NCBI GenBank assembly: GCA_963845755.1
Contig: CAWJTV010000019.1
Location: 160,001 to 224,000 of the forward strand
From: an uncultured Planctomycetota bacterium
Lineage (GTDB): Bacteria > Planctomycetota > Planctomycetia > Isosphaerales > Isosphaeraceae
Direction of reading: 5' to 3'
DNA length: 64,000 nucleotides
Part shown: piece after piece, positions 19,501-58,541 of the stretch
Layout of the letters: the number at the start of each line of letters is the position of its first letter
Numbering within the stretch: the first letter of the stretch is position 1
Program-made: the position numbers and the translations under genes
The notes under the pieces: model-generated
Told to the model about the DNA's origin: nothing
The model's database searches: none
Seen by the model: the letters and a program-made list of their open reading frames with translations, nothing else

Positions 19501-19734
19501 CGCCTCGTGCGACGTACCGCCCTGCGAATGTCTCCAACGCCGACCCGCCGGGTGACCGGCGGTCCGGCAGACGGGGCGAGGCGACGATGAGGTTCACCGC
19601 ACCGCAGTGGTCAAGAGTGTTCGGAAGAAAAGACTCCCGGTTTCTTGGTAGGGTGGCCAAACGGACCGAGAGCCGACCGCTGCCGGCTTGGCTGGCCGAT
19701 GAAGGGGTTCGGTAGCTCAGATTCCCATCGCTCG

Positions 19735-19912
19735 AACGCCGTTCTACCGCAACGCGGTCCGTTCCCAATCCGGATTTCACGCGGAGACGCGGAGACGCGG
19801 AGAAATCCCGTTTCGCATGCGAAATCCGATCCTCGGCTGCCTCGGTCGGACTCCGCGTCTCCGCGTGAGACTCCTCGATCCCTAACTTAAGAGCGTTCCG
19901 AAGAAAGGACTC
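19735..19912. repeat. ~180-bp repeat, copy 2 (inverted)
   Basis: Reverse complement of 17548-17726. Confidence 0.85.
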
Positions 19913-20067
19913 TCGTTCAATGGTTGCACCTTCATCGTTTCCGAACGCCCCAAGAGACCCGCACCGGAAGGACGGACCCTCCCGGCTTCCGCCGGGGTGG
20001 TCAATCCTCCATTGCCACAGCCGCTTCATGGGCAAGGCTGTGTGGGCATGCCGGTCCGAAACGCGAA

Positions 20068-29644: not shown

Positions 29645-29820
29645 GGGAATCCGGAATCGGGAATCGGGGATCTCGAATCCGGAATCGGGGATCTCGAATC
29701 CGGAATCTCGAATCCGGAATCTCGAATCTCGAATCGGGGATCTCGAATCCGGAATCTCGAATCTCGAATCGGGAATCCGGAATCTCGAATCGGGAATCCG
29801 GAATCTCGAATCCGAAATTC
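29645..29820. repeat. Heptamer tandem array (GAATCTC / GAATCCG / GAATCGG), about 25 units
   Basis: Directly visible between two convergent genes; same unit family as the arrays at 43020-43845. Confidence 0.95.
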
Positions 29821-34674: not shown

Positions 34675-34813
34675 GAGTGGTCCTTTCCGAGAATGAGAGT
34701 GGGCTGAACTTAATTCTAACTCCGGACTGGGGGCTTCGACAAGGTTCTTGGTCAGTGAGTAGTCGTCAGTAGTCAGTTGTCATTTGTCAGGAACCGCGCC
34801 TCATCCGGTCTTG

Positions 34814-35070
34814 AGAGTCTGTTCCATAAGTCCTTTCCTGAGCCCCCGGATGGGGGCGGAAGCACGTAGCCAGGGGCGTGAGCCCCTGGACGAGGGGAGT
34901 TCCTCCGATCCGGGAAGCCCCGTAGGGGCGACAGAAACCCTGTGGTTCTGAGGACGTCTGTCGCCCCTCCGGGGCTCGAAGGACGGTCGAGGGGGTCGCG
35001 GTCGATCGTCCAGGGGCTTGCGCCCCTGGCGACGTCCGGTCGCCCCTCTGGGGCTTTGGGAACGGACTCT
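34814..35070. mobile_element. MITE-like element, copy 2
   Basis: Same TIRs and interior as 32893-33150, same orientation. Confidence 0.8.
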
Positions 35071-35111
35071 GAACACTGAAAACTGAACACTGAAAACCAG
35101 GAGCGAAGCGA

Positions 35112-38100
35112 CTACTGAATGATCTTGCGATACAGGACCGCCGCGCGGAACCCGCCGACGTCGTTGTAGTTGAAGCCGGTGAGCTTGAGCCGGTCCACGA
35201 TGAAGAAGCCGCGATAGCGGACCTGGGTGCCGCTCAACTTGCCGACCTCGGGGCCCATGATGTCGTACGCGAGCTGGGGCAACCCCTGGCCGAGCATGCC
35301 GATGTCCCCCTGCTTCTTGATCTCGAAGAACCCGATCGTGATCCAGACCGCGTACTGGTGGGTCCGGACCGTGGTCAGGTTCATCGCCGCCTGCATCATC
35401 TCCGACCGCCAGTACGGATGCTGCCGGTCATCGGGATTCACGCCAGCAGCACCACCGGTGCCGAGGTAGGGTTTGTTCGACGCTGGCGTGCCTGTGTTCG
35501 AGTAGCCGTTGTAGAACGTCAGAGTTGCCCGGTACGAAGGGCGCGGCAATGACTGTAGGGGGGATAAGGCGAGCGAGACCGGTGGTAGCGTCGCCCGTCG
35601 GCGTCAGCATCGGAGGCAGGCCGGCGGCGTTGGGGTAGTAAACCCCGCCGCCAGAATTAGTCATGCCGCCACCCGAAGTCGGTCGGGAACCATGACCACG
35701 GGAGGCTCGTGAACCCGTTGCTGAGCGTGTACATCGGCACCGCTCGGGAGGTTAGTCGGTGATTGTACGGGTTGTACCCCTGGTTGGCGACGATGTTATT
35801 GATCCAGGGATCGCCGGAGTCGGTGGCGTTGCTCAGGGCCGGCGGGATGTTGCCGTTGGCGATGAGGCCGGTGGGGTCGGGGATGCCGACGTACCCCATC
35901 GGGTTAATTGACGTAGGGGTAGCCCTCGAAGTGGCGTCCGGCTGGACCTGCCCCGCGCCAAAGGCGTCCGGCGGCTGGAACAACCGGGCCGGCGGGATGG
36001 CCGGGGGCATCGCCACGTGCCGTCCAGGCCGATGGTGGTTGTCCCGGTCGGCCATGCGATGTTCACCGGCAGTGGGAGACCCGCGGGCACGGTGTTGGTG
36101 GAATCGGTGGTCAATCCCGGCGGTCCAGACCGGATAGGGGCGGGCGTGAAAGACCACACAGGACGGAGGGGTCGACGGTCGTGTAAAGGTTGGGGTCGCT
36201 CGACGCATACCCCTGCGAGAGGAACGGGTTCCTCACGCCCGGATCTCCCGAGTAGACGACCGGCATGGACCGGCGATTGCGGGAAGATCGGGCCTTCGCC
36301 GTCGTATCCGGCGGAGCCTGGCGTGATGTAAGGTGCGTAGTAGTTCGGCTGCGGGCCGAGCATCGCATTGAGGTAGTTATTATTGAGGAAGTACCAGCTC
36401 GAGGGTGCGGTTGGCCGGGGTATAGATCATCGCCTGGGCGTTGGTCACGGTCGCGAGCAGCTGGGGTACGGCGGCTATTGGGGTTCGGTGATCATCGCCG
36501 GGTTGCTGTAAATCGACGGCGGCTGTGCGGCGGGCCGCATGATCGTGTAGTTGATGTCCGGGAACGAGAGCGAGCGGAACGGGAACTCGGCCGGGATCGG
36601 CCCCGTGTAGCCGATGGTCGACGACAGGTTCGGCGTCGCCACGGCACTGTTCTGTCCCGTCGCGCCGACCCCGTACCCGAACAGGTAGCCGGACCCGCCA
36701 TGACGCTGCCAGAGGAACTGCGCGAACGCCGCCTTGATCCGGTTGCCGGGGCTGGGCAGTAAGCACCGGCGTTGCCGTTAATCGCGATGATTCGACTTGA
36801 ACGCCGATGGGATCCTGGGCCAGATACCCCTGCTGGACGGAAGTTCTGGTCGGTGATCGGATACACGTAGTTCGGCGCGCCGGTCGGCTGGATCGCGCTG
36901 ACGACCAGCGGGACCGGCGGCCCGCCGAGCGGGATCGGCGGGAGTGGCACCGTGCCGCCATTGGTCCAGGTGGACAGGGGCATCGTGTAGGGCAACCACG
37001 TCGTGGCGTTGCTGTTGGGCCCGGCCAGCAATGGCAGCTCGATCGAGTTTAACAGGGTCTGGCTATAATCCGATGATCGTCTGACGCCCGAACACGGCGA
37101 AGAACGCTTCCTCGTCGATGATGAGGTTGAGGTTCATCAGGCCCGGCTTGGTATCCTGCCGCGCCCAGTCGAAGTTCATCCCACCGGCGACCGTGCCGAT
37201 CGAGCCGTTCATCTGGCTGGGCACCTCGAAGAACTCGAGCATCTTGAACCAGCCGTCGCTGGCCGGGCCGCCCACGACGGGGGCGGCGATGTTCACGCTG
37301 TGCCCGAGGCCGACGCGCTGGGACGGGTCCGTGGCGCCGGGACCGCGAGCCAGCGCCGCCAACGTCCCGGTCGTCGAATCTTCGGCGGCACCAGCGGCGG
37401 GATAGAGGAACGTCGACGCCCCCGTGTAGAAGAACTTGTCCACCAGGTAGGGGTAGCTATGGGGCTGGATGGGCGCCGTGACAGGGCCGGCTGGGTCGGT
37501 GGAAGGGGTCACTGGTCGGGACCGACGCCGGAACCGACGCCGGGGGGGTGCCCGTCGGGCTGCCCCCCAGCGAGCTGGCGGCGGTGAGCTTCGAGACCGA
37601 CAGGAACGGCACGGTCGCCGTGGCGAAGGGCACGACCGGGGGTGCTGTAGGCGCGGTGCGCGGTGGTCGTCAGTCGTGGGCCCGTTGGTGTGAGGTCGGC
37701 GTCACGTCCGGCGTGACCAGGCTGAAGATATCGGCCGCGTTCATCTGCGACGGCGCGAACTCGACGAACTGCTTGGTGAACAGCCCCGGCGGGCAGCCGG
37801 GAACCAGCGTCACCTCGGCCACGCTGGTGAAGTCCCGATCGTTGAACACGAAGTAATCCCAGTTCTCGGCCGCGTCGTTGTTGAATCCCAGAGTGTGGTA
37901 ATAGTAGTTGGTCGACGCGTTCCCTGACGGCTCCGAAATTGGCGTAGCCCGTAGGCGGTCGCTTGAGCTGTAATGCTGTGGGGACGCCGATCTGTTCGCT
38001 GTAGCCGTATCGCGGGTCTGGGGGCTGAGTGGTCGTGATGGCTCCCTGAGCGTTGGCCGTCGGGGACGCTGTGGCGTTCGGCATCGGCACGGCGTGTCCG

Positions 38101-41100
38101 CCGCGATACGGCTGGAGCCGCTGGGCCGAGTAGATCGTGTTGGGCTTGGAGCCGGCGCCACATACAGGACGCCGCCGGTCAACGTCCAGGCCGTGTCCTG
38201 CGTTGGCCCGTCCCATCGATGTAAGGAAACCGCATGGAGTTGACCACGCACATCGGGTTGGTCGCGGACACCGGCGCGAACGGATTGGCGGGGCGCCGCA
38301 GGCAGACCCACAAGAACTCGGCGGACCCGATCGCTGGGGCCCCGGTGCTACCGATGAGACCGGGAGATTCCATTGAAGATTGCTGATTCCGCTCAACGTC
38401 GTGTCGGTGGATCGGCGCCGGGAGAATCCCGAAGTGATAGGAGGTTGCGGTCGCTGCCGAAGGGGGGAGGGGAGCCGGTGGCTCTCATCGGGTCGTAGGT
38501 GGATGACAGCAGTTGCGTGACGGGGAGGGTATGGAGCGGCGAGTGGGGGTCCAGGACTCGTTGGCGGCGATGTACGGACTGCCGATGACGTAGAAGTAGG
38601 TCGTCGGTGGGGTGGGCGGGGTCGCCGCGCTCGGAGGGTTCGGGCTCGGCGTCGTGAATGGGTAGCTGGTCACGCTGCGTGTCGCTGGGACTGAGAGGGA
38701 GCAGGGTGACGTCGCCCTCGTTCGGCGCCGTTCGGTGTTCGGCCCTCCGAACGAGTCCCGGTTCAGGGGGAGCAGGCCGTAATAGGTGGCCTGCGGAACC
38801 GAGGGGTGGCACCTCGCCACGGTAAGGATCCGGACGGCCCGCGGGGGTATCGGCCAGGAAGACCAGGTCCCAGGTGCCGCCGGAGTAGGGATCGCTCGGG
38901 GTATAAGTCGAAGCCGCCCAGGTCGAGGACGCTGGCCTGGTAGGGCGGGGTCGTGGGGCCTGGAATGTTGCCGCCCGTGGCGGGGCCCGTGACGGGAGGA
39001 CTCTCTGGGAGAGGCCCGTAGCCGTAGTAATTGTGGGGGTCGGTCGGAGTGCCGTAGTCATACGTCGGGTTGTAGGCCGCGGTCAGCGTGTTGACCAGCT
39101 CGATGAAGAAGCGGTTGGTGTACTTGGCCGTGCTGGTGTGCCGATGCCGGTCCGGCTCTGGAAGCCGTAGGCCAGCACTTCGTTGATCGCGACCGGGTTG
39201 TACTCCATGCCGTACTGGTCGAGGAGGCCGCCAGGGGTTCCGGCAGGGGACAAGGGACGCCAGGTTGAGCGTCGGGTAAGCCAGGGCGTTGGTACTGGGC
39301 GTCATCCAGACGTCCGGGTTGACCCAGTGGGTCATGGTGGCATCCGGGTCGCGGAAGTCGATGATGTTGATGACGAACTGGCTGAGCTGCGCCCGTTCCT
39401 CGGCCGTGTCGATCGAGTCCGGCGGCAGGATCCATTTCAGGATCTGATAGGTGTCGCTGATCCACTTCTGCCGGATCGGCTCGTTGCAGTCGTTGGAGAC
39501 CGGCAGCGGGTAGTTCAGGTTGATCTTCCGATCGCGGTGGGCCAGCGACGGGGTATAGGTCCCAGCAACCTGCGTGCTGGCATTCACGCCCACGGCGAAC
39601 CGGCTGTTGTACTGGAAGGTATTGCCGGGGTTATCGTTGGACCAGGCGAAGCCGTTCGACTCCCAGCTATCGGTGCTGAAGAGCCGGCGCCGCCGCAGAC
39701 CGTCGATCGTGTTGGTGAAGCTGATCGGCGCGAGCTGGGACAACCGGCTGGTCAACGTCGCCCCATCCACGTCCTGCTGCCGGTACAGCCACTCCAGGTC
39801 GCTGATGCCGAACGGCGAGTCGAGTATCGGGTTCGGCGAGTAGAGGTTCATCTCGTCGGCCTCGTTCATGGCGTCCGAACTGCGTCTTGCGGCTGACGTG
39901 CGAATCGTAGGTCGGGAAGGAAGTAGGGCGCGGTGGGGGGCGTGTAGGCAGGAGGGCCGGGCGGCGGACTCGCGCCGACCATTTCCCCGACGGTCAGCGT
40001 GTTTTGATCGATGGGCATGGCGGCGACGCCGCTGGGTAGATGGTGGTCGTGTAGCTGAACGCCGTGCCGGCGAACTGGAACTGGTTGGGGAATTTGTATC
40101 GACTCGTAGCCGTGGAACGGGTTATTCGTCACGTCGGGCTCGTAGATGACGGTGGCCGTGGGCGCGGGTGGATACGAGGTAAAATCGGCGGTCCACGGTA
40201 TCGGAACGCCGGGGTCCATCGGCGGGCTCGCCTGGTTGTTCTGCCACCAGTCTCCGAAGCCGGCCGGGGTGCCCGTCCCGGGGATGGTCATCGTCATCGG
40301 GTTGTAGGGCGCGATGGCACCATAGGGGAAACTCGTGGTGTCCGACGACGTGATGTTGATCGGGCCCGGTACGCCCGGGGGGCGGTAGTAGCTGTTGAAC
40401 GCAACGCGGCCGAAGACGTCGGAGCCCCGGCTCGTGCCCACGGCTCCCGGTACCGTTGATATCGGCCGGCGTCACGTACCGCCGCATCCGCTCGACCGGC
40501 AGCATCAGCGCGCCGGCAGGGTCGTAGTAGTCGAGGTCGAAGATCTCGCCGAAGCGAGTCGCAGGGCCGCCGACTGGGGGGAAAGATGTCGAACGCGTTG
40601 TCGTTATCGTCGGCCCCGTCGCGGGGGAACGGCGTGGTGCCGTTGTAGGTCAGGTTGGCGATCAGGTCGGCGATGTCGAACGAATACCCGGCCCGGACCG
40701 GATTGATATAGTTGGTCTGCAACAGGTTGGCAACCGGCGGGGTCCCTGTGGGACTGGGATTGTTGAACGGCTGGCCGGGGACGGATGCGGCCTCGCCCCA
40801 CCGCCCGCCGACCGGCGCGGTGCGTGCGCTGGACCAGCATGGCCCCGCTGGGGTCCGTGAAGCCCCCGGGGTTGGCGATATCGGCGAGATCCGCGATCCC
40901 ATTGGGCAGGTAATAGGGATTGCCACTGGCGAGGCCCGACCATGCCCCGTAGACGATGTTGTCGTCGCCGTTGATCGTGCCCGTGGAGTCGGTGGTGAAG
41001 GGGTTCGACGTGCTGGGGTTGAGCTGCGGCCGCGTGCCGGCCAGCAGGTTGCGGAGCTGAATCAGTCGGACGTCGATCGATTTATAGAAGCCAGACACCT

Positions 41101-42864
41101 GGTTGATCGCGTTATCCGCCTGGGTGTTGAAAGTGCCGTGGTCGGAGAACCCCAGTAGGTGGTCGCCGGTACCGAGGGGATAGGTGGCTGGGGGTGGCGA
41201 TGCCATTCCCAAATTGGTTGAACGGATCGACGTCGCTTCCGTAACTGATAAGCATTCTGAAGCGCGTACTGCGGGTCGATCTCGCTGACCGAGTTGCCCA
41301 GGTGCTGGGCCTGAGCCGCGAGTGCGCTGACGGTGGCTGGGTCCCGGCCCGCGAGGTTGCCGGCCGTGTTGAGCGGGATGCGGCCGTTGAGGCCGATGAC
41401 CATGAAGGCGAACAGCGGCTTGTTGAGCTGCCCGCGCGTGTCGCGGCGGGCGGGATAGCCCAGGTCGAGCCAGACCGAGTCGGTGATCCCGTCGCCGTCG
41501 TTGTCCACATCGTAGGCGATCTTCCCCGTGTTCGCGTCGGGGATCAGGTCCGGGAACGTGTTCGCGTCGTGGCCGTCGGCCGCGACCGGCCGGAGGATGC
41601 GGCCCAGCGAGTCATAATTCGGGATCCCGAACAGGCCATTCGGGAACCGGAAGGCCTGACTCCAATCGAGCGGATTATTCGTCTTCTGGCCCGTGGGACC
41701 GTTGTAGCGGAGGATCCCCGGCCGGTGGAACGACGGGATCATCACCTGGCCGTCGGCGCTCTGGATCGCCAGGAACCAGTTCTCCAGGTCGCAGGCGTCG
41801 TAATCCTCGTCCATGCCCACGGTGTTCGGCCCGGGGACGTTGAGCGCGAGGTTATAGCGGAAGTTGCCGTAGTAAGAGTAGGGCAGCCCGGTCACAGTCG
41901 AGAAGCTGTTTCCCTGCCCCGGACCGTTGAACGCGTGCAGCCAGCGGCCGTCGAGCGTGAACGGGTAATTGGCGGGGCCGGCGCCGGAGTAGTACGGGAT
42001 GCTCGGATACGCCCCATTCCCGCTCAACTGCAACATGGCCTGTTGCGTCGGGACGTACGCCAGCGGCAGGGTATTCGTGTTCGACCCGGGCTGGTTCCAG
42101 CCCGGGAACAGCGGCGGTGGCGTGGTCGCGCCACTCGGGTTCCAGCTCGTGAATCCGAGCGTCGGATTATTCAGGACCGCTTGGTTCTTATAGGTATTGC
42201 CCATCGTCGTCAACGAGGGTGAGTGGCGAGTCGATCGGGCTGAGCCGGAAGGCGTGGAAGCCCTGGCCCCCGTACGTCGTCCCGGCCCCGGCCGGCGCGA
42301 AATCGTTGACGATGACCTCCAACGACTGGCTCACCGCCTGGGGATACGTGGTTGTGCTCGTCGTCGGCGTGGGCCCGATGTACGACATCCGGACGATCCA
42401 GCGGGTGAAGTTGTAGCCATACAGCAGCGGGGAGTTCGCGGGGATCGGAATATTCGTCAGCACGTCGTAATACGTGACTCCGTTGATAACGACCGGAGCG
42501 ATCAACAACGCGCCCGTCAGCGGGTTGGCCTGGAGCTGCAAGGTGCCATTGGTCGCCGGGTTGTACGTCAGGTAGCCGTTCCGGAACGCGTCGTTGCCGT
42601 ACATGTCGCGGGCGAGGCTGTGGCCGTGGAGCACCGAACGGGGGTCGTTCGTGTCGGTGATCAACTGCGAGAGGGCGAAGTCCATCAGCTCGTCGTCCTG
42701 CGGCTGGATGACCGACTGCGCGAAGTTGGCGCGTTGATCTTCGACTGGCCGCTGAAGGTGGCGAAGGTGACCCCGATCAGGGCCAGCAGGCCGAGCATCG
42801 CCAGGACCAGGACCAGGACGATCCCGCGCCGCGCCCGCTTGTGATGTCGTAGATTGGCCAGCAT
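35112..42864 (-). CDS. Giant (~2,500 aa) PilX/GspK-like minor pilin or adhesin, fragmented by many indels
   Basis: Start MLANLRHHKRARR-GIVLVLVLAMLGLLALIGVTFATFSG (class III signal lacking Glu5) after an SD GAGGGAG. Continuous coding-like P/T/N/G-rich frames include MDEDYDACD, DVDNDGDGITDSVWLDLG, GRIPLNTAG, RKINLN, QFVINIIDFRDPD and NLTTVRTHQYAVWITIGFFE...YRKIIQ*. It could be more than one gene. Confidence 0.7.
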
Positions 42865-43019
42865 GAGACGAGTCTCCCTCTATTTCAGTTCCTCGCGATT
42901 GCGACAGCCCACCAGAATCGGGCCCGCGCTGTGTCTTGATCGTGATTGGATCGCGTTTCGTACCGTAATTCGATGCTCTCCGAACATCCGTGGTTCCCGA
43001 TGTCTCTTGTCAGGGTCAT

Positions 43020-43095
43020 CGATTCGAGATTCCGGATTCGAGATTCGAGATTCCGGATTCGAGATTCGAGATTCCGGATTCGAGATTCCGGATTC
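43020..43095. repeat. Heptamer array (GATTCGA / GATTCCG), about 11 units, starting at the four-helix-bundle stop codon
   Basis: Directly visible; reverse complement of the 43643-43845 array. Confidence 0.95.
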
Positions 43096-43616
43096 AGCCC
43101 GGCTTCCCATTTCCATTCCGAGACGAAATAGCCGTCCTGGCGGCCTCGTCCTGGATGGCCTGCAATTTCACGAGGCACTCATCCCGACGTTTCACGGCTT
43201 GAGTTCGTTCTCGCGCCTGGGAATTCTGCGACCGCACACCTTGAAAACCCGAATCCTTGATGGACTCGATCCAACCCCCGAGTTGTCTCGAGATGCTCTC
43301 CCCGCGGCGGAGGAGATCCTCAAGATCGCGGTGCAAATCCTCCGGTCGTGGAAGTCGTTCGAGAAGATGGAGCATCGACCGGACTTCCGCGCACGATCCT
43401 CGGGCGATGTAGAGGAAGTTCAGGAGCTCATTATTGGTTCCGCGATCGAATCCCTCGGCGATATTGTTCGAGATGGAGATGGTCGCCCGCTCGATCTGAA
43501 TCTTGAGATCGCCCAGAGCGTTCAACACGCCCGTCGCCGACAATCGGAAGACGGCAAGAGCCATTTCGATCACGTCGTTCCAGACGGGCAACTCTTTCGA
43601 ATCGCTTGTATTTCAT
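43094..43616 (-). CDS. Four helix bundle protein (23S rRNA IVS protein / Avd-like fold family); frameshift near 43592
   Basis: MKYKRFE-LPVW...LKIQIERATISISNNIAEGFDRGTNNELLNFLYIARGSCAEVRSML. Confidence 0.9.
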
Positions 43617-43642
43617 GGGAACTTCCTCAGGCGACTTCTTTG

Positions 43643-43845
43643 GGCATCTCGAATCCGGCATCTCGAATCCGGAATCTCAAATCTCGAATCTCAAATCTCG
43701 AATCCGGCATCTCGAATCCGGCATCTCGAATCTCGAATCCGGCATCTCGAATCTCGAATCCGGCATCTCGAATCCGGCATCTCGAATCTCGAATCCGGCA
43801 TCTCGAATCCGGAATCTCGAATCTCGAATCCGGAATCTCGAATTC
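43643..43845. repeat. Heptamer array (GAATCTC / GAATCCG / GCATCTC), about 29 units
   Basis: Directly visible between the Uma2 stop (43855) and the SD of the four-helix-bundle gene. Confidence 0.95.
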
Positions 43846-43854
43846 AGCCTTCCC

Positions 43855-44632
43855 TTACTCCCCTTCCCCGCGCCGAGGTGCGGCCCGGGCCAACCGTCGT
43901 GCCTTCTTCTTCATTTCCGCTCGGAGGCGCAGAGCCCAGGCCGATTCATCCCTCGTGTCTTCCTCGATCACCCAGCGTCGAACCTCCTCAGCCCGGACCG
44001 GTAAGAAACCGCTGGACGTCACGGTCGCATACGTCCCCTCTGGCGTGAGTCGTTCGATGGTGAGGGTGTCGCCATGGAGTCGCCAGACCTCGGCGACGCG
44101 GAGTGCGGCAGAGATCCCTGCACGGTCAACCTGGGGCCGGGACACATCGACCTCGATCGCCAGGTCGGGGTTGGGATACTCGGCAATATCGTCTGAATCG
44201 CGCTCTAGCGACGCGGCGTCCATGGCCAGTTTCTCGAGGAGGAAGTAGTAACATTGGTCGGACTGCAGACCACGCGCGATCTCGGGCCGTTTCCAGGTCG
44301 TGTCCGCCAGGCTGGAGTAGGGGATCGACAAGACCTGGGCGACCGCCTCGACGAACTGGCCCAATAACTTGTTGCGTTTTCCATGCCTCCGTCCTCTGGA
44401 CATGACCTCCAGGTCCCTCCCGTCGTAATCGACGTGGAGGTTGCTGCCTTCCGGAATCGAGTCCACCAGCTCCTCGTAGAAGGCCCAGTCCTTGTCATGG
44501 AACACCACGCGCTGCTCGGGGACGGCGGTCAACCACCGGAGGACTTCCAGGGGCGGCACGCCGCACAAGGGGCCCCGACAATTCGAGCGGGGCGGAAGCC
44601 GTCATCGGGATCAGGCTGGTCGCGGTGCTCAT
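43855..44632 (-). CDS. Uma2 (DUF820) family PD-(D/E)xK-like protein, copy 2 (frameshift near 44565)
   Basis: DWAFYEELV, YDGRDLEVMS, GLQSDQCYYF, NPDLAIEVDVS, VAEVWR. Confidence 0.9.
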
Positions 44633-44701
44633 GGGATTCCCTCCAAACTTCCGCGTTGCTCGCCCGTCGAGGTGCGAGGCGCGGGACTCGTGGGCCCGCC
44701 T

Positions 44702-45472
44702 CTACTTCGCTTCCCCGCGCCGACGTGCGGCCCGGGCCAACCGTCGCGCTTTCTTCTTTGTTTCCGTCAATAATCGCCGGATCCACGCCGACTCATCACT
44801 CGTATCTTCCTCAACGACCCAGTGCCAGATTTCCTCGGCGCGAACCGGTAGAAAGCTGCTCGAATCGACTGGCGCATAGGTCCCGGTTGACGTCAGCCGC
44901 TCGATGATGACCTGCTCTGCCTCGAAGCGCCAGACTTCGGCGACGCTCAGGGCGGCATAGATCCCGGCCCGGTCAACCTTGGGCGGGGAGATGTCCACCT
45001 CGATCGCCAGGTCGGGGTTGGGGTAGTCGGCGATGTTCGGCGAGCGCCGCAAGCGTGCCACGGTAGCCAGTTTTTCCGGCTGGAAGAAATAGCACTGGTC
45101 GGCCTCCAGGCCGCGTGAGATTTCGGGCCGTTTCCAGGTCGTCTGGGCCAATGCCCTGAAGGGTATTCCCATCGCGGCCGCAACCAGACTGACGAACTGC
45201 CCGAGATAATGCTTCACATCCTCGTGATCTGGACCGACCGCCATGACCTCGAGATCCTTCCCATCATAATCGACGTGGATGTTGCTCCCTTCCGGGATCG
45301 AGTCCACTAACTCTTCGTAGAAGGCCCAATCGACGCCATGGATCACCACGCGCTGCTCGGGGACCGCGGTCAACCAGCGGAGCACGTCGAACGAGGGAAC
45401 GCCCGCCGCGGCGCTCGGGATCTCGAGCGGCGGAGGGACCGTGAGGATCGTCGGGGTCATCGCCGTGCTCAT
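44702..45472 (-). CDS. Uma2 (DUF820) family protein, copy 1
   Basis: VDWAFYEELV, YDGKDLEVM, GLEADQCYFF, NPDLAIEVDIS, IYAALSVAEVWRF. Confidence 0.92.
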   Translation of the reverse strand: MSTAMTPTILTVPPPLEIPSAAAGVPSFDVLRWLTAVPEQRVVIHGVDWAFYEELVDSIPEGSNIHVDYDGKDLEVMAVGPDHEDVKHYLGQFVSLVAAAMGIPFRALAQTTWKRPEISRGLEADQCYFFQPEKLATVARLRRSPNIADYPNPDLAIEVDISPPKVDRAGIYAALSVAEVWRFEAEQVIIERLTSTGTYAPVDSSSFLPVRAEEIWHWVVEEDTSDESAWIRRLLTETKKKARRLARAARRRGEAK

Positions 45473-45574
45473 CAATCCTCCCTCGACGACTTCAGCCGGC
45501 GTCGGGAAGACCCGCGCCGAACGAGAACCGTCGCCATGCTGCCCTTTTCTCGCCTACTGCCTACTGCCTACGGT

Positions 45575-47954
45575 TCAAAGCTTATCCGAGAAATCCTGCC
45601 GGATCGTCAACGACTTGATCCGTTGATTGGTGGGATCGACGACCCGGATCTGGATCTGGATCCCGCGGAGCGGCGCCGAGTACGGCGGCGGATACGATGG
45701 ATAGAGCGGCGGCGCAAACGGGTAGCCTTGCGGAAACCCGCCGTTCAGGCTGGCGACGCCGGTCCTCGGCGCCACGCTGTAATCGGTTAACCAGGAATCC
45801 CACACCCGCCGGAGACGCACGATCCCGTTCGAGTTGTCGCCGACATTGCCGTTGTTATAATTTCCGCCGTTGGCCACGAGAAACGGGCTGAGGACTCCCA
45901 GATAATTCGCCGCCACGCCCGACTGGGCGTCATAGACATTGTCGTTGATCAGGGGCGGCATCCGTCCCTCGTGGGCGAACGTCTGGCCGAGCGTGTTGTA
46001 AATGACGGTCGTGGGATTCGTCTGGGGATTGGCGGGCGGCCAGGCGAACAGCGACGGCGTGCCCGCCAACGGCGTGTTGGACGTGCCGGCGAGGAACAGG
46101 GACGTCGGACGGACCGTGGTCGGATTGAAGTTGCCGATATTGAGGTTGTACGGACCCCCCGTCACGTTCTGATAAGGGAGGTACATCCGGAGATCATCGC
46201 CCCACCCCAGGTCGGCATACGAGCCCAGGCACGGCTCGAACGCCTTGACGTCGAAGCTCCGCACGCCCGTCATGATCAGGTCGTCTTCCCACGTCTGGGA
46301 CCAGAGCGGCATGTTCAGGTTCCCGTTGTTCGGATTCGTGAGGAAGACGGAAAAAATCCCTTGTCCGTCGCAGTAAAGCTGGTCCGTGTTTCGAAGCCAT
46401 GGGACATTGACCGTGCTCGCGCCGGCGTTCCAACTGGAAATCATCGGCGGGAGCAAGTTCTTGAGCACATTATTCGGATTCGCGAGATTGACGGTACCAC
46501 CAGTGACGTTGAGCAAGGCGTAGGTCAATCCCGCGGGCGGCTGAGGCGACACGGCTCCGCCGTTACTGGCCAGCCGGACCGGCCCGACATTCACCTGCAC
46601 GGTCGGATCGGTCCAGTTGGGCGAGAGGGTCTCGCGCCACGTGGGGAAGCCCCACCAGGTCTGGAGCGGCTGAATCTGGGCCGTCTCGTTCGTGGGTAGG
46701 GGATTGACCGGGGTGGGCAGGTTGTCGCCCAGATCCAGCGGGTTATGGTTCAGGGCATTCAGGTACGTCAGGCCGCCCGTGTCGAACTGGACCAACTGTC
46801 CGCTGGCATTGGCATAGGGCCCAGGCGCGTGAATCCAGCCGTACTGGTCGGCCGAGATAGCTTGCGCCCGGGAATAGGCGCCCGGGAACACGTAGGGAAA
46901 GGCCAGGAAGTTGACCCCATTGGCCCCGGGCGCTGTTGAGGATCTGCTGGACCCCCGTCTGGTAAGTGGGACTGGATGAGGGTGAGTTGATCAGATACGG
47001 TCCTGTGGTCGTGGTGAAGAGATTCGGATACAACGACGTGTAGAGGTCCGGGATGTTGTCGCTGTTGACGTCGTCGGGGATACCATCGGGCCGACTGGTC
47101 GAGGTATTCACGTCCAGGAAATCATTGGCATACCGCGGGTAAAAGGCCCGGTTCTCGCGGTTGGTCAGGTTGCCCAGCGTGTTCAACAGGATCGTCGTCT
47201 GGGCCTGCGAGGCCAGCGTCGGGGTCGTGTTGAGGTTCGGCCCGCTGGGGGCCGGATGCGCCGAGAGGTCGTTCACGCCCTGCCAGCTCACGACGGGACC
47301 GTTGTTGGCCGGCCCGCCGAAGATCGTCGGCTGGAAGTTGGTCTGGACGAGATTCCCGTTGACGGTGGTGAAACCGGTGTTGGCGATCGTCGGCACGATC
47401 GCCGACTGGAGCTGGGGCGCGACCAGCAGGACGCGGCGATACAGGTTCCCGTTGCGGAGGAAATAGATGATCTCGGCGTAGTCGCTGGTCACCGTGACCG
47501 GGAAGCTCGCGAAGTTCGAGAAAGGCGTGGTCTGACTCGCCCCGAAGATCTGATTCGTATTGGCGTTGAACCAGGGATTGACCCACATCCGCCCGGTGAA
47601 CGGCCGGCCCCCCGGCGCCTTGGCGGTGAACCGGATGTAGTCGTCGCAGTCCTCGCCCTGATTGTCGGCGAACTCGTTTTCGCCGTACTCGAAATAGCCG
47701 AGGTTCAGGGTGGGGTCCAGCGGCGGCGTGAACCGGGCCGTGACGCCCTCGAGGTCGGCGCGGATGATGCCGTCGATCCGGCGGAGCTGGTCGTCCAGTT
47801 GCTGGTACGCCTGGGCCGCCGAGACGGCGCCGGTCGCCGCCTGGAAGATCTGGACCAGGATCGTCATGATGATCACCAGCACGGCGACGGTGACCAGCAT
47901 CTCGACCAGGGTCACGCCTCTTCGACGATTCTTGGTCCTCGGCCCTTGGCGCAT
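45575..47954 (-). CDS. Large PilW/GspJ-like minor pilin (frameshift near 46915)
   Basis: RRRGVTLVEMLVTVAVLVIIMTILVQIF...QLRRIDGIIRADL; YAEIIYFLR...LYRRVLL; C-terminus PLRGIQIQIRVVDP...TIRQDF. Confidence 0.85.
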
Positions 47955-51979: not shown

Positions 51980-53547
51980 CCCGAACCTCCGATCGCGACG
52001 GTCGTCTGCAAGTTCTGGTTGCTGATATCGTCCTGGGCCGCCTGGAGCAGGTCGTAGCTGGTCGGATTGGTCGGGTCGGTCCCCGGGTTGTAGCCGACCG
52101 TCGTGCTCTGGATCGAGGCGTGCTGGGTGAAATCGGCCACGTCGTTGATGGAAAAGGGCATGGCGTTGTTCTCGTTGGCGATCAGCGCGAAGGCGGCACT
52201 CGACCCGAAAGCCTTCATCGCGGCGTCGGAGTAGAGGAAGACCCCGAACTGTTGATTCAGCCCCGAGGAGACGATCAGGAATTTGGAGTAGTACGCCCGG
52301 CGCCCGCCATAGGCCGTCCCGCGGTCCCAGAACGTGGTCCCACCCGGGGTCGGGTAAGGCTCGGTCAGGCGGTGGAAGAAATACTCGAAGGCCTGGACGC
52401 CGCCGCTGCCACCGGCCTGGCTCGCCGTCCCGGGGAATGCGAAGACGGCCGTGTTGAAGGCGTTGTTGTAGGAGCTCGACCACCAGGCCGGCAGCATCAG
52501 TTGCTGGTTCTGATCGAGCGGGTTTTGCTCGCGCTCCTGGAACGCGGTCAGATAAGGGGGGGCCATGGTCCAGGCGTTCTCGCTGTTGGCGATGATCGTC
52601 TGCCCGCGCTGGATGTCGGAGTGATACAGGAGCGGCCACCGGAAGAACTGGAGCGGCTGGCCCCAGGCGTCGACGAACTCGGGCAGGCCGTCGTCGTCGG
52701 TATCCTGGACCTCCCGGTCGGTGAAGTCGTCGGGATTGTAGATCGCACCCAGCGGGCCCCGGCCTTCGACCAGGATGGCGTAGAGCATCTCCGAACGCGC
52801 CGTGTTGTGCGTGTGGTTCGTCAGGTTCGCCACGACCTGGGCCTGATTCGTGGTGGTGACGCCCTCGGCCCACTCGTCGATCAGGCCGTTGCCATTGTTG
52901 TCGATCATGTCGTAGCCCTGGGGCAGGTAGCCCAGGTTCTTGTAAAGCCCCGCCGCCGCCGGATAAGAGGCACCGAAGATACCGGTCCCCTGGGGAATGT
53001 AGGGATTGCCCGACTGGGGCCCGAGGATCGCGTTCCCCGTCGGGAGGACGTAGCCGGCGACAGCGTCAAGCTGGCTGTATCCCGTGGAGCCGCCCAGCGG
53101 CTGGCCCGGGAACGGGTTGGCCGCGAAGTTGATCGGGTAGGGGCCCGTCGCGTTCTGCACGAAGAAGACGTCGGGCAACTCACTCTTGATATAGTCATAC
53201 CAGGCGATGACTTCAGCACGCGTGGGGCCCAGGATCGCCCCATTATTCGGGAGGGTGGACTGCCCGTAGACGCTGCTGTTATAGATATTCGACATCGCGA
53301 GATGTGCCAGGTCGTAATCGGGCCGGGTCAGGAGCAGGGCCTCGATCCGGTCGTTGAGCCCGGTCTCCAGCTTGGTGATGAGACTCTGGGTCGCCCGCTC
53401 CTCCGCCCGGCGGCGGGCCTCCATCGACGCGTTGATGATGAAGCCGACGATGATCGAAATGATCACCATCACGACCATCAATTCGACCAGGGTGAACCCA
53501 TCGGGGATCCGGGATTTGGGATTTCGGATTCGGGCTTGGTTTCGCAT
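51976..53547 (-). CDS. Prepilin-type N-methylation domain protein (523 aa)
   Basis: DGFTLVELMVVMVIISIIVGFII; DTDDDGLPEFVDAWGQPLQFFRWP; LIVSSG. Confidence 0.9.
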   Translation of the reverse strand: MRNQARIRNPKSRIPDGFTLVELMVVMVIISIIVGFIINASMEARRRAEERATQSLITKLETGLNDRIEALLLTRPDYDLAHLAMSNIYNSSVYGQSTLPNNGAILGPTRAEVIAWYDYIKSELPDVFFVQNATGPYPINFAANPFPGQPLGGSTGYSQLDAVAGYVLPTGNAILGPQSGNPYIPQGTGIFGASYPAAAGLYKNLGYLPQGYDMIDNNGNGLIDEWAEGVTTTNQAQVVANLTNHTHNTARSEMLYAILVEGRGPLGAIYNPDDFTDREVQDTDDDGLPEFVDAWGQPLQFFRWPLLYHSDIQRGQTIIANSENAWTMAPPYLTAFQEREQNPLDQNQQLMLPAWWSSSYNNAFNTAVFAFPGTASQAGGSGGVQAFEYFFHRLTEPYPTPGGTTFWDRGTAYGGRRAYYSKFLIVSSGLNQQFGVFLYSDAAMKAFGSSAAFALIANENNAMPFSINDVADFTQHASIQSTTVGYNPGTDPTNPTSYDLLQAAQDDISNQNLQTTVAIGGSG

Positions 53548-53807
53548 GGCGGCCTACCGTCGAGAGTGGTGATCAGTCGGGTCTCGATCGTGGGATTTCC
53601 GGTTGTTCGATCGACCTCACGGACAATCCCAAATCGAAAACCCAAAATCCCAAATAATTAAGTGCATTCTTCGATCGGGGCCGGCGCCCGCCGCCCTCAC
53701 CGGGCGGCCACGGGCGGGCCTGCGTAGGTCAGGCCTTCCATCGGGCCTGACAGTTATGTCTCGCCAGGCCGGAAAGCCTGACCTGCCGACTTGCCGGAGT
53801 CTTACGA

Positions 53808-55049
53808 CTACCGGAGTGCCGATGCCTTGAAATTGCTCAGATTATCGTACTCCCGCTGCCGGATGCTGGCGTCGCCCAGCGGGTTTCCGGTCGAGGCGTT
53901 GATCGTATTATTAGGGTCCACCGGCAGCGGGACGGTGGTCGACTGCGTCGATTGCTGATACTGGCCGCCGACCCCGTACAGACCGTCGATCCCCGCGGAG
54001 ATAATCTGGAAGGTCTGCGGCTTCTGATAGGTGACCGTCCCGGTGGTAGCCGGGGCCGTCAGCGTGCTCGTGTACGGATTGGGCGACGGCGAGATGGAGA
54101 CATACGGGGTCGTGGCGCTGCCGTACGTCAAGAAACCCACGTAGTACTGGAGCGCGGTGATTCCCGTGCCGGTCACCGCATCGGTCTCGACGAAGTTCAC
54201 GTCGTTGGGGTCGTAGTTCCCCCTGCCGTAGGCGCTGAAGTAGGCGTAGAAGTTGACGGGACCCGAGCCGGTACCGGCCCCGGTCGGCGGACCGTTGTTG
54301 AGCGTGTCGTAATAGGCCGGGATGCCGGGGTTGATCCCGGCGGGGCCATTCAGGGTCGTGTTCGTGGGATCCAGGAACAGCCGGCCGGCATTGAACTCGA
54401 AGGTCGATTGCTGACGGTTGGCGTTGTACATCGGGTTGTTGACGATGCTATTGCTGAACGGGTTGACCGGGTCCCTGCCGAAGCCCGTCATGCCGTAACC
54501 GCCGGAGCTCGAATCGAAGAGCGGGATGCCGCCCAGGAAGAAGACCAGGCACTCGTGTCCGTGGAGGATATAGGCACCATCCAGGGTGCCGTTGCCGTTG
54601 AAGTCGTACCAGTAAGTGTTACTGAGGTTCGGCGGCGAGGACCCGTTGGTGCTCAACTGGACCTTGGGCCAGAATCTCCGGAGGGCGGTCAGCGTCCGCG
54701 AGGCGAGCTGACCGACCGTGATGTCGTGTGTGCCCGGCGAGGTCGGGTCGATGGAGCTGAGCGGTAACGTATTCCCGACGTAGGGCGTGTAGTTCCCGTT
54801 CTCGACCAGCAGCACGCGGCTCGGGGGATAGTCCCCGTACGTGCTCTTGAAACTCTCCAGCGCCTGGGCGAACTGGGTGATCTCGGCCAGGACCTGGGCC
54901 TGCCTGGCGCTCTTGACAGCGCCGAAGATCGCCGGCAGCAAGAGCGCGATCAGGATCCCCAGCACGACGATGACGATCAGGAGCTCGACGAGGGTGAAGC
55001 CTCGTGGTCCTCGGTCCCGGGTCCCGGGTTGCTTGGCGTCGAACCTCAT
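53808..55049 (-). CDS. GspG/PilA-like pilin or pseudopilin (413 aa)
   Basis: RGFTLVELLIVIVVLGILIALLLPAI...ALESFKSTYGDYPP; FQIISAGIDGLYG...DNLSNF. Confidence 0.9.
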   Translation of the reverse strand: MRFDAKQPGTRDRGPRGFTLVELLIVIVVLGILIALLLPAIFGAVKSARQAQVLAEITQFAQALESFKSTYGDYPPSRVLLVENGNYTPYVGNTLPLSSIDPTSPGTHDITVGQLASRTLTALRRFWPKVQLSTNGSSPPNLSNTYWYDFNGNGTLDGAYILHGHECLVFFLGGIPLFDSSSGGYGMTGFGRDPVNPFSNSIVNNPMYNANRQQSTFEFNAGRLFLDPTNTTLNGPAGINPGIPAYYDTLNNGPPTGAGTGSGPVNFYAYFSAYGRGNYDPNDVNFVETDAVTGTGITALQYYVGFLTYGSATTPYVSISPSPNPYTSTLTAPATTGTVTYQKPQTFQIISAGIDGLYGVGGQYQQSTQSTTVPLPVDPNNTINASTGNPLGDASIRQREYDNLSNFKASALR

Positions 55050-55149: not shown

Positions 55150-55200
55150 TACGAATATTGAAATATCTTATTTATATTATTAGCGCCGATGCATTTAGTG
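55150..55200 (-). promoter_or_regulatory. AT-rich island, probable promoter for the pilin genes
   Basis: GAATATTGAAATATCTTATTTATATTATTAG in a GC-rich background, about 110 nt upstream of the first pilin ATG. Confidence 0.5.
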
Positions 55201-55274
55201 TACGGATGCTTCACCTGTTATCCCACCTGTTCTCTGGCGGACAACTCCGGAGCGCGAGGCGCGCCGGAGGCGCC

Positions 55275-56520
55275 CTAGCCGGAGAGCTTCGAGATCAGCG
55301 TGATGAGCGGGAGGAACAGCGCGATGACGATGAAGCCGATGATGCCGCCGAGGATGACGATCATGATGGGCTCGAGCAGGCTGACGAGGCTCTCGACGGC
55401 CGTCTCCACCTCTTCGTCGTAATTGTCGGCGATCTTGTTGAGCATGGTGTCGAGCTCGCCGGTCTCCTCGCCGACGTCGATCATGTTGACGACGATGTCG
55501 TCGAACGATCCGGGCTTCCTTGAGCGGCTGTGCGATCGTCTCGCCCTCGCGGATGCTCTCGTAGATCCGCGTGAAGGCCCGCTCGAAGACGGCGTTGCCC
55601 GCGGTGTCGCGGACGATGTTCAGCGACTCCAGGATCGGCACGCCCGACTGGACCAGCGTGCCCAGGGTCCGCATGGTCCGGGCCACCGTCAACTTCTCGA
55701 CGATCATGCCCATGACCGGGATCATCAGCTTGATCCGGTCGCAGATGTAGGCCCCCGTCTTGTTGCGGTAGAGCAGCTTGAGGAAGATCCAGACGAACAA
55801 GGGCGCCAGGAAGATGATGTAGAAATACTTGATGAGGAAGTGGCTGGCCTTGATCAGGAAGATGGTCATGCCGGGCAGCGGCACGCCGAAGTCGGCGAAG
55901 ATCGCCTCGAACTTGGGGATGATGAAGTAGAGGATGAAGCCCACGATCACGCAGGCGACGAAGATGACCACGACCGGGTAGACCATCGCCGCCTTGACCC
56001 GGCGCTTCAGCGACTGGGCCTTCTCCTTGAAGTCCGCCAGGCGCTGGAGGATCGCCTCGAGTGCACCACCGGCCTCGCCCGCCTTGATCATGTTGCAGTA
56101 CAGCCGGTCGAACGCCTTGGGATGCTTGGCGCAGGCCTCGGAGAGCGTCTGGCCGCTCTCGATGTCCTCGACGACGTCCTGGAGCGAGTTCTTCAGCACG
56201 CCCGGCTTGCACTGCCCCTCGAGGATCTTCAGGCTGCGCAGGATCGGCAACCCGGCGTCCTGCAAGGTCGAGAGCTGGCGCGTGAAGACGCACAACTGCT
56301 TGGTCGAGATCCGGCCGATCGTGAACGACTTCTTCTTCCGCCGGCCCCCCTTCTTGGCCTTGGCGCGGGTGCTGGTCTTCTTCGCCTTCTCGGAGATCTT
56401 CGTGACGAAGAACCCCTTCTGGCGGATCAGTTGCTGCGCCTCTTCCTGGGTCGAGGCGTCGATCGAGTCCTTGACCTCGCGCCCGGTGTGGTCCATCGCC
56501 TCGTACTGGTAGGTCGGCAT
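55275..56520 (-). CDS. pilC: PilC/GspF platform protein (frameshift near 55500)
   Basis: [56 protein letters not shown]. Confidence 0.93.
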
Positions 56521-56649
56521 GGGGGTCGCTCCTCGCTCCAGTGGTCAGGGGTCGGTGGTCGGACGAAAGACGCGTCTCTCGCACCGCCGATCACGACTGG
56601 CTGACCTTCTTGCTGTTTTGTGTCTCTTCTGACCACTGACCACGGCTGG

Positions 56650-58368
56650 TTACATATCGTCCAACATCGTCTCCCGCAGCACTTCCTCGATGGAGGACTT
56701 CCCGTTGTGGATGTACTCCATGCCGACTTCGCGGAGGGTCTTCATGCCGAACTTGCGGCAGGCGTTGCGGAAATCGTCGAGGGAGGCCTCGGAGATGATC
56801 ATCTCGCGCAGGGTGTCGTTCATCACGAGCAGCTCGTAGATGCCCTGCCGGCCCTTGTATCCGGTGTTATTGCACTTGTCGCAGCCCTTGCCGTAGAAGA
56901 ACTTCTTGGTGGTGGCCTGCTCGGGGGTCATGCCGAGCTCCATGCAGACCTCGGGGGTCGGCGTGAATTCGGTCTTGCAGAACTGGCAGAGGCGGCGGAC
57001 CAGCCGCTGGGCGAGCACGGCCTCGACCGTGGCGGTGATCAGGAACGTGGGCACGCCCATGTCGCGGAGCCGGGTGACCGCCGAGGGCGCGTCGTTGGTG
57101 TGCAGCGTCGTGAAGACGATGTGGCCCGTCAGCGAGGCCTGGATCGAGATCTCCGCGGTCTCCAGGTCGCGGGTCTCGCCCACCAGGATCTTGTCCGGGT
57201 CCTGCCGCAGGATCGACCGCAGGCAGCTGGCGAAGGTCACGCCGATGTCGGGGTTCACCGGGATCTGGATCAGGCCCTCGATGTCGTATTCGACCGGCTC
57301 CTCGGTCGTGATGATCTTGTCCTCGATCCGATTGAGGTGGTTCAGCGTGGCATACAGCGTGGTCGTCTTCCCCGAGGAGGTCGGGCCGGTCACCAGGATG
57401 ATGCCGTTGGGCTTCTCGATGATGTCGTGCCACGTCTTCAGCGTGTCGTCGGGCATGCCCAGCAGCTTGAGGTCGAGCTGGACGACCGTGCGGTCGAGGA
57501 TCCGCAGCACGACGCTCTCGCCAAACATCGTCGGCAGGGTCGAGACCCGGATGTCCACCTCGTTGCCGCCCAGGGCGAGCTGGATCCGGCCGTCCTGCGG
57601 CAGCCGGCGCTCGGCGATGTCGAGGTTCGACATGACCTTGATCCGGCTGGAGATCGCCGGGGCCAGGTGCCGTGGCGGCGGGACCAGCTCGTAGAGGATC
57701 CCGTCCACCCGATACCGCATCTTGTACTCTTCCTCGAACGGCTCGAAGTGGATGTCCGACGCCTTGTCCTTGATCGCCAGCAAGAGCACCATGTTGAGCA
57801 GCTTGCGGACCGGCGCGGCCTCCGCCATCTCCTCGATGGCCTCCAGGTCGATCGTGTTCTCGTTACGGCCCGCCAGCTTGGCCAGCCCCTTGTCCGACTC
57901 GATCTGCTTGACCACATCCTGGATGCTCTCGTGGTGGCCGGCATAAAGCCGCTCGATGGCCGCCATCACGTCGGACTCCGACGCGATCGCCCCCTTCACC
58001 TCCGTGCTCAGGAACATCCTCAGGCTGTCGAGCGTCGAGGGGTTCTGCGGCTCCGCCATCGCGACCGTGATGCTCTTGTCCTTCTTGTTCTGCGAGATCG
58101 GCACGATCTTGTAGGCCGTGGCCATGCTCTCGTTGACCAGGTCCGTCATCTCGGCGGGGATCGTCACGTCGGCCAGCTTCACGACCTTCATCCCGAGCTG
58201 CTCGCCCAGCGCCTTGAGCACCTGGTCTTCCTTGACCAGCCCCATCCGCACGGCCGTCTTGCCCAGCAGCTCGGTGCCGGTGCGCTTCTGCTCCTCCAGG
58301 ATCTTCCAGAGAGTCTCCTCGTCCAGATAACCCATGTCAACCATGATCGTGCCGAGTCGTCGTGCCAT
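56650..58368 (-). CDS. pilB: PilB/GspE assembly ATPase with MshEN-like N-terminus
   Basis: ASDIHFEP, RLPQDGRI, GPTSSGKTT, LRQDPD..LVGE, TGH...TLHTN, CxxC...CxxC, GYKGR. Confidence 0.93.
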   Translation of the reverse strand: MARRLGTIMVDMGYLDEETLWKILEEQKRTGTELLGKTAVRMGLVKEDQVLKALGEQLGMKVVKLADVTIPAEMTDLVNESMATAYKIVPISQNKKDKSITVAMAEPQNPSTLDSLRMFLSTEVKGAIASESDVMAAIERLYAGHHESIQDVVKQIESDKGLAKLAGRNENTIDLEAIEEMAEAAPVRKLLNMVLLLAIKDKASDIHFEPFEEEYKMRYRVDGILYELVPPPRHLAPAISSRIKVMSNLDIAERRLPQDGRIQLALGGNEVDIRVSTLPTMFGESVVLRILDRTVVQLDLKLLGMPDDTLKTWHDIIEKPNGIILVTGPTSSGKTTTLYATLNHLNRIEDKIITTEEPVEYDIEGLIQIPVNPDIGVTFASCLRSILRQDPDKILVGETRDLETAEISIQASLTGHIVFTTLHTNDAPSAVTRLRDMGVPTFLITATVEAVLAQRLVRRLCQFCKTEFTPTPEVCMELGMTPEQATTKKFFYGKGCDKCNNTGYKGRQGIYELLVMNDTLREMIISEASLDDFRNACRKFGMKTLREVGMEYIHNGKSSIEEVLRETMLDDM

Positions 58369-58541
58369 TGGTCATTGGTCCTTGGTCGTGTGATCGTGAT
58401 CGGGGTTCCTGGTCAGATCTCTGGTTTCCGGAGTTGTCGGGATCGGGCGCGATCCGCGGAGTTCCCGTCTCGATAATTGCGGCGGGCGCCGGGCGAATGC
58501 CCGCGGAGCGACCGCCAGGTTAATGACCAATGACCAATGAC

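Follow-up and report, generated by a model that had tools for sequence, protein, structure and literature searches.

The locus considered here raises the question of why a four-helix-bundle (4HB) gene is held in the loop of a long stem of heptamer repeats inside a pilin operon, and whether such a stem serves the transcript or marks an element whose gain, movement and loss take place in the DNA. In the initial annotation it was taken for an mRNA analogue of the intervening sequences (IVSs) of 23S rRNA, an interpretation that is supported in part. The window, by which the whole analysed stretch of 64,000 nucleotides is meant, covers positions 160001-224000 of contig C19 in a genome of 14.3 Mb with 64% G+C and 49 contigs. 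On its minus strand a prepilin-type gene, a lone TAGGCAG array, two successive Uma2 genes and the 5' arm are followed by the ribosome-binding site (RBS), the 4HB gene, the 3' arm, 156 nt and the giant gene of the pilin operon (Table 1). The operon is of pilus type, with prepilin N-methylation motifs in several genes and a GspF/PilC-type gene at 55195-56520.

Table 1. Features of the cassette and its surroundings, in window positions.
Feature	Position	Strand	Remarks
5' arm	43646..43845	-	~28 heptamer units GATTCGA/GATTCCG/GATGCCG
RBS-like GAGGA	43624..43628	-	7 nt 5' of ATG 43616; motif and spacing shared with G001 and L095
4HB gene (TIGR02436/PF05635)	43094..43616	-	~173 codons; extra base near 43595-43597
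Helix 4 start	43301..43348	-	heptamer-encoded in many subclade relatives; non-periodic in the window copy
3' arm	43021..43096	-	~11 units GAATCCG/GAATCTC; pairs with the 5' arm over 75 nt
Uma2 (PF05685) gene	43855..44568	-	directly 5' of the cassette, same junction
Second Uma2 (PF05685) gene	44702..45475	-	profile match
Lone 5'-type heptamer array, TAGGCAG	45552..45571	-	immediately 3' of the stop of the upstream host gene
Upstream host gene	45575..47954	-	prepilin-type N-terminus; one frame change in assembly
Downstream host gene	35112..42864	-	giant protein, 2454 aa in G015; frame-broken; ATG 156 nt past the 3' arm
Lone array, GATTCGA/GATTCCG family	29646..29816	-	~24 units; partner arm absent

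Tandem Repeats Finder detected arrays of period 7, 14 or 21 at 43646-43843 (~28 units) and at 43021-43095 (10.7 units). The 5' arm begins ~10-12 nt past the Uma2 TAA (43855-43857) and the first base or bases of the 3' arm fall within the TGA of the 4HB gene (43094-43096), so that the described position of the gene, between a 5' array of ~28 units lying ~10 nt after the Uma2 stop and a complementary array of ~11 units at its own TGA, is confirmed. The arms share 75-nt inverted matches in many registers, the best of them 95% complementary, and their best local alignment contains 71 Watson-Crick pairs and 4 mismatches. When 871 nt of the minus strand were folded, the gene was looped out with a minimum free energy of -398.5 kcal/mol (z = -8.6; none of 20 shuffles reached this value), in agreement with the earlier description of a ~75-bp duplex possible in several registers. 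No minus-strand promoter-like site was found at the locus, terminator-like sites were no more frequent than by chance, and the region 41500-46500 gave no Rfam match at E<=0.1. Tight translational coupling across the stem was considered and rejected for the window locus because 156 nt separate the 3' arm from the next ATG; the paralogues on contigs C30 and C36 differ in this respect. Elsewhere in the window a long inverted repeat of 8-nt units (17480-17726 and 19613-19915, with segments of 61-92 nt that are 83-97% complementary) surrounds ~2 kb; this element is not a heptamer cassette.

The open reading frame 43094-43591 matched TIGR02436 with 77.3 bits (cut-off 24) and PF05635 with 71.9 bits (cut-off 33.8), and the closest named relatives of its product belong to Isosphaeraceae metagenome-assembled genomes (MAGs). 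The orthologue in the same-genus genome G001 matched the sequence of PDB entry 2GSC (XCC0516) with E=8e-10, while a single-sequence structure model was all-helical at low confidence (pLDDT 51), too weak for a fold search. Comparison of the window protein with that of G001 gave dN 0.11 and dS 0.88 (dN/dS ~0.12), a ratio by which purifying selection on the protein is indicated. The gene model requires correction: the true start is ATG 43616, one base out of frame with the gene body, the shift lying at the A-run near 43595-43597. At the position of this break the frame is intact in G001, and the 7.7-kb downstream gene is split into 16 frame pieces relative to the intact relative in G015, far more than the neighbouring genes. 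Since frame breaks are frequent in this assembly and G001 is intact, the break in the 4HB gene is likely an assembly error, a real lesion being the alternative. The 16 pieces of the giant gene (35112-42864) may themselves reflect either an error-rich assembly or true decay. Two paralogues, at C36:339194-339514 and C38:71021-71341, carry an in-frame TAG each with intact arms, and at L032, L048, L068 and L200 the 4HB frames are open over 470-760 codons, which suggests fusion with a neighbouring gene.

Inverted arms are not a peculiarity of the window copy. Paralogues mostly without inverted arrays had been named as the outcome that would count against the initial annotation, and the reverse was found: all five TIGR02436 genes of the genome are flanked by inverted arms, made of five different and internally matched units. 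With an arm call threshold of score >=14, arms were present in 55 of 71 family loci and in 24 of 30 phylum loci, the latter being the best 30 of more than 350 matches. From a list of 89 family matches, L001-L005 and 69 further ones were taken up; L147 (no HMM match), L116 (core identical to L050) and 7 of 126 loci with short flanks were left out of the counts. The threshold was reached by 1 of 595 shuffled and 60 of 1500 cross-paired controls for the family set, by 2 of 300 and 41 of 870, respectively, for the best 30 of more than 350 phylum matches, and by 16 of 119 controls in direct orientation. Arm length ranges from ~21 to 105 nt and the unit is variable. By crude strand calls, both neighbours are co-oriented with the cassette in 76 of 100 arm-bearing loci.

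The distribution of arms is uneven between protein clades. Of the 48 named loci in the protein subclade to which the window gene belongs, most of them from Acidobacteria, only 7 reach the arm threshold; many occupy one conserved site, have an upstream array alone or none, and look domesticated. One clade of 8 members has no arms and another of 9 members has hexamer arms throughout. Arm units diverge as the proteins do (Mantel rho 0.33, p=0.0005), and sharing a genome has no bearing on unit distance (rho -0.01, p=0.65), both p-values being overstated because kin are not independent; the proportion of locus pairs within one unit mismatch rises from 0.01-0.03 below 40% protein identity to 0.5 above 70%. 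According to these comparisons of sequence the arm unit follows the protein lineage and not the host genome, a link for which co-descent alone suffices, without binding of the arm by the protein. The number of units per array was also considered as a possible trace of the protein: a length peak at 5 units, one for each subunit of a pentamer, was rejected as evidence because the detection threshold shapes the histogram, in which the observed peak is at 4-5 units. Seven cassettes (L149, L150, L167, L170, L175, L177, and L197) lie between genes which, from their resemblance, we take to be cas1-cas2, atpG-atpD, groES-groEL, and carA-carB.

At the junction itself, 26 relatives possess the downstream gene, of which 20 were compared and the other 6 left out. 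In 18 of the 20 the two host genes are adjacent and the junction is empty, and the 4HB gene is absent from it in 19. The junction of G015 contains two Uma2 genes and a decayed 3'-type array with no 4HB gene, and that of G001 contains four Uma2 genes and the cassette, where the arm lengths are the reverse of those in the window (~3-4 units in the 5' arm, ~250 nt in the 3' arm). In the named Isosphaeraceae MAG L095 the cassette, with arm unit GATTACA, occupies the same junction but adjoins the upstream host gene on its 3' side, ahead of the one Uma2 present there. Uma2 is present at the junction in 0, 1, 2 or 4 copies among the relatives, and the lone array after the upstream host stop is TAGGCAG in the window, TGTTCAG in G001, and TGTTCGG in G015. 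It follows from this comparison that the cassette is gained or lost at the junction, that its arms change in length and unit, and that its place relative to Uma2 varies; the order in L095 could also be explained by tandem duplication with differential loss. No mobility enzyme was found, and no target-site duplication was evident in a three-way junction alignment whose members are too diverged to decide the matter; movement is therefore inferred from presence, absence and order only. As side observations, the Uma2 tandem is found at the junction in the window (43855-45475), L006, L007, and L095 with copy numbers of 1, 2, 2 and 4 among them, and the cassette-free orthologous junction L024 (G010) has a duplicated small hairpin of GACAGAT, which is also the heptamer given for the Coxiella IVS in the pertinent part of PMC4990558.

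In some relatives the repeat is present within the gene as well. Helix 4 in the window subclade often starts with LKSEISNLKS or LESEIRNLKS, encoded by 3-4 heptamers of the unit class of the arm, three heptamer units being equal to seven codons, that is one heptad. An internal array at p<0.01 against synonymous resampling was detected in 18 of 61 subclade genes and in 0 of 65 genes of other clades, and 17 of the 18 arrays are located at the helix 4 start. Compared in the inverted sense with the upstream arm of its own locus the internal array gave 15.2, versus 12.0 with the arms of other loci (permutation p<1e-4, n=20), and in L050 it has the form of an in-frame expansion. On a poorly resolved tree the internal array requires at least 8 changes; it is present in the 11-row clade containing the window gene, and the window's own copy has none at helix 4. 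We read the internal array as a probable product of local DNA copying between arm and gene; it shows repeat DNA taken up as coding sequence for an amphipathic helix.

Heptamer arrays are also in excess in the genome as a whole, where arrays of period 7 number 244 but those of periods 5 and 8 only 7 and 13, respectively; at a loose threshold the number of period-7 arrays is 568, many of them of the GATTC family. Adjacent inverted pairs with loops of <=60 nt have the polarity of the cassette in 97 of 98 cases, as judged with a motif list drawn up after the arrays had been viewed. The only cargo found in matched array pairs is 4HB genes, which are contained in all three cassette-polarity adjacent pairs with loops of 251-700 nt. 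Lone arrays lie 3' of a same-strand stop in 37 of 225 cases in the 5'-type reading, in 7 of 225 in the other reading, and in 44 of 3000 at random. No 4HB remnant was detected by HMM or blastn in 16 loops of 61-250 nt, which counts against the proposal that empty hairpins are decayed full ones. Many abundant heptamer units of the genome have no matching intact 4HB gene.

Most junctions of the pilin operon have heptamer arrays, mostly of units other than those of the window cassette. The proposal that the window cassette is the 'full' form of these empty hairpins fits the common polarity and the 4HB content of the large loops, but the unit of most empty hairpins in this operon differs, and these would therefore be empty forms of other cassette lineages. 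Gene-less heptamer hairpins, each of its own unit, are seen at the successive operon junctions 58366-58541, 56540-56640, 53500-53655, and 34751-35097, and a palindromic element is nested within the last pair. At 53500-53530 and 55006-55029 the 3'-type arrays overlap the N-terminal codons of pilin-type genes. Dozens of near-identical copies of a short, conserved GATTC/GAATC hairpin, whose loop measures 12-14 nt, are spread over the genome (for example, C9:52778-52853, C18:14270-14350, and C47:125830-126332), often in tandem clusters ~150 nt apart; the hairpin is REP/BIME-like in appearance and built from arm-type units.

The choice between a stem acting in RNA and an element acting as DNA can be approached through the arms. 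A stem selected in mRNA predicts more G·U than A·C mismatches and a more stable duplex in the sense strand, and neither was found. The arm mismatches comprise 79 G·U and 84 A·C (27 and 30, respectively, in the best 30 of more than 350 phylum matches), so the excess of G·U is absent in both sets; the sense duplex is the more stable one at 48 and the antisense duplex at 52 of 101 loci (p=0.76), and in the window the values are -131.8 and -132.4 kcal/mol. These are therefore signs of the DNA level. In G001 a stem is possible over ~24 bp only.

Cassettes nested inside other genes provide a second line of evidence. Through the cassette the -1 frame is free of stops in 13 of 170 loci and the +1 frame in 0 of 170, and in 8 of the 13 the open stretch extends far in both directions; the four host sites concerned are two DNA methylases, the BREX gene pglX, and one gene without family match. 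Nested cassettes with an open host frame in such genes are L154, L155, L157, L158, L159, L180, L030, and L036, whereas in L169 and L176 the nested form is broken. The host frame has no need to stay open unless ribosomes translate through the cassette, since cutting would destroy the frame and splicing would make it unnecessary; the nested copies are thus likely neither spliced nor routinely cut. A spliced intron was also rejected on account of these frames, together with the lack of a cassette-skipping joint in RNA-library contigs of G115, which is a weak test. At this two-cassette locus of a phylum relative, the sequence was found in contigs of 13 RNA-labelled datasets; those of 4 RNA libraries from 4 studies span the arm boundaries, no skip or back-joint at the cassette was seen in them, and the joints listed all belong to another repeat element (3014-3235). 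The contigs are no evidence either way, because DNA may be present in the libraries, rare forms are lost in contig assembly, and RNA ends are not visible in contigs.

The readings of the locus can now be weighed. In the excision reading selection acts on pairing of the arms in the mRNA, and RNase III releases a gene RNA of 0.6-0.8 kb, by which the operon message is split. The stable predicted stem (duplex of about -132 kcal/mol), an RNase III gene in the genome (TIGR02191, 216 bits), and complementarity that persists as the unit drifts all agree with it. So does the analogy in build with rRNA IVSs, which is upheld by the same architecture in the Coxiella IVS, cut by RNase III at the first heptamer according to the relevant passages of PMC4990558. 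Nevertheless, excision as the working principle is not supported, in view of the arm mismatches, the duplex stability and the open frames of nested copies, to which the short stem of G001 and the lack of a spreading route from excision are added; the reading as a whole is unlikely, and what stands of the mRNA-IVS analogy is the architecture. RNase III cutting of the intergenic 75-bp stem could occur as a side effect. The improbable reading of chance, by which generic heptamers pile up at junctions in a genome rich in repeats and lie beside the gene by accident, can appeal to the 568 period-7 arrays of the loose threshold with their many GATTC members, but it is contradicted by the arm counts, by controls of 0.2-5%, by the five internally matched units at five paralogues, and by a cargo survey in which matched pairs contained 4HB genes only, and hardly any weight is left to it.

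Two further readings give the protein a function at the arrays. As a regulator in the service of the host, the 4HB protein would bind junction arrays to tune translation or decay, its own arms being an autoregulatory site. Purifying selection and the arrays beside stops and starts at nearly every junction of the pilin operon fit such a role, and a post-transcriptional regulator has been proposed for the Beggiatoaceae repeats in the part of PMC4679880 concerned with them. It is nevertheless quite unlikely: the gene is patchy (31 of 61 family genomes) and 18 of 20 junctions are empty, in-frame stops occur in two of the five own paralogues, many abundant units have no intact partner gene in the genome, and a regulatory role hardly accounts for copies that lie within methylase coding sequence. 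Of similarly low probability, slightly lower if anything, is a non-autonomous retro-element, in which the closed RNA stem is bound by an Avd-like pentamer and handed to a host reverse transcriptase (RT), by which the looped-out gene is copied, the arrays being produced by RT stuttering or template jumps. Support for it comes from the structural homology of PF05635 and Avd (as given in PMC10053308), from passages of bioRxiv 10.1101/2023.10.23.563531 on the diversity-generating retroelement (DGR), where Avd is a positively charged RNA-binding pentamer needed by the DGR RT and the template must be enclosed by flanking RNA, from 42 RVT_1 matches in the genome, and from repeat units even in the gene interior. 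Against it, none of the five paralogues adjoins an RT, the nearest on the window contig being ~62 kb off, and the RNA-level pairing signal is absent. By analogy, a retro route through the homology of PF05635 with Avd and the RNA-binding and RT role of the latter would have low odds.

The reading that we prefer, with a probability of roughly 0.58, is that of a promoterless hitchhiking 4HB cassette whose gain, movement and loss are events at the DNA level; as a rule it would be read along with the host transcript and not be excised from it. It is built on the observed anatomy of the locus, the presence and absence of the cassette at the junction, the arms on nearly all family members, and the tie between arm unit and protein lineage. 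Purifying selection, the common polarity of gene-less hairpins and lone arms, and the open host frames of nested copies belong to the same body of observation.

For such a hitchhiking cassette the following course of events may be proposed. The arms would be kept matched by local DNA copying, either by slippage, by template switching or by gene conversion between them, and in the window subclade this copying would also have reached helix 4 of the gene. New insertions may arise when arms recombine with arrays of the same unit, or with empty hairpins, that lie between genes. The heptamer excess of the genome would then consist of empty hairpins and lone arms left after loss of the gene. The protein is likely pentameric, as XCC0516 and Avd are; it probably binds its own arm sequence and so may aid the persistence of the cassette, and the ORF-bearing 23S IVSs would be copies that landed in rRNA and are removed there by RNase III. 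A wider proposal, which we regard as doubtful, is that 4HB genes with their arms form an undescribed class of mobile element without encoded nuclease or transposase, in which the Avd-like pentamer recognises its own arms and drives copying through host recombination or RT; such copying would write units into junctions and helix 4, and both the rRNA ORF-IVSs and the heptamer excess of bacteria would go back to it.

No description of this cassette class was found in the open-access PMC and bioRxiv literature (subscription papers and supplements were outside the scope), and in the parts of PMC8700078 and PMC5524665 that concern such genes they are merely listed. The cassette would link PF05635/TIGR02436, a very large and Avd-homologous family, with the unexplained heptamer excess and polarity at gene junctions, and the ORF-bearing 23S IVSs would become one of the places in which a general cassette has landed. 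Each protein clade, the hexamer clade included, has a predicted cognate unit, and binding specificity is therefore open to swap tests.

Among known systems, REP/BIME elements with RAYT and MITEs resemble the hairpins described here in being scattered between genes and in having a less frequent form that contains a gene. The difference is in the cargo, which is a 4HB gene and not an HUH or DDE transposase, and in the arms, which are tandem arrays that vary in length and have lineage-specific units; of 10 Y1_Tnp genes 9 were checked and none has a period-7 array within 1.5 kb, and no RAYT or RT neighbour was found among the cassettes and arrays checked. PF05635, the family of the window protein, has a four-helix-bundle fold homologous to that of Avd, which in the DGR forms a nucleic-acid-binding pentamer according to the parts of PMC10053308 and bioRxiv 10.1101/2023.10.23.563531 devoted to it; unlike an Avd-bearing DGR, the cassette has no adjacent RT (the nearest RVT_1 on the contig is at ~62 kb), no template or variable repeat was apparent at the locus, and its arms are tandem heptamers.

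The junction repeats of Xanthomonas (GGGAATC, of the same unit family as the window arms), Nostoc, and Beggiatoaceae (TAACTGA) are likewise 7-nt units, G-rich after stops and C-rich before starts, as described in the sections of PMC4692102 and PMC4679880 on these repeats. There the Xanthomonas repeats form 70-75 inverted pairs with the G-rich strand after stops and the Beggiatoaceae repeats lie just 5' of start codons, a polarity that is the same as in the cassette arrays; these sections make no mention of four-helix-bundle, S23 or intervening-sequence genes, and unlike the published repeats the window arrays are the arms of a gene cassette. The closest comparison is with the 23S IVS of Coxiella burnetii, which in the account of PMC4990558 has a 28-bp terminal stem and heptamers of variable number just 5' of the S23p ORF, in the first of which RNase III cuts; the window cassette also has terminal inverted repeats closing a stem around an S23p-type (PF05635) ORF, with heptamers 5' of it. 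Unlike the Coxiella IVS it lies outside 23S or 16S rRNA, between protein-coding genes (Uma2 and the pilin-operon gene), its stem is 75 bp instead of 28 bp, its RBS is within the loop, its protein is under purifying selection, and its nested relatives keep the host frame open.
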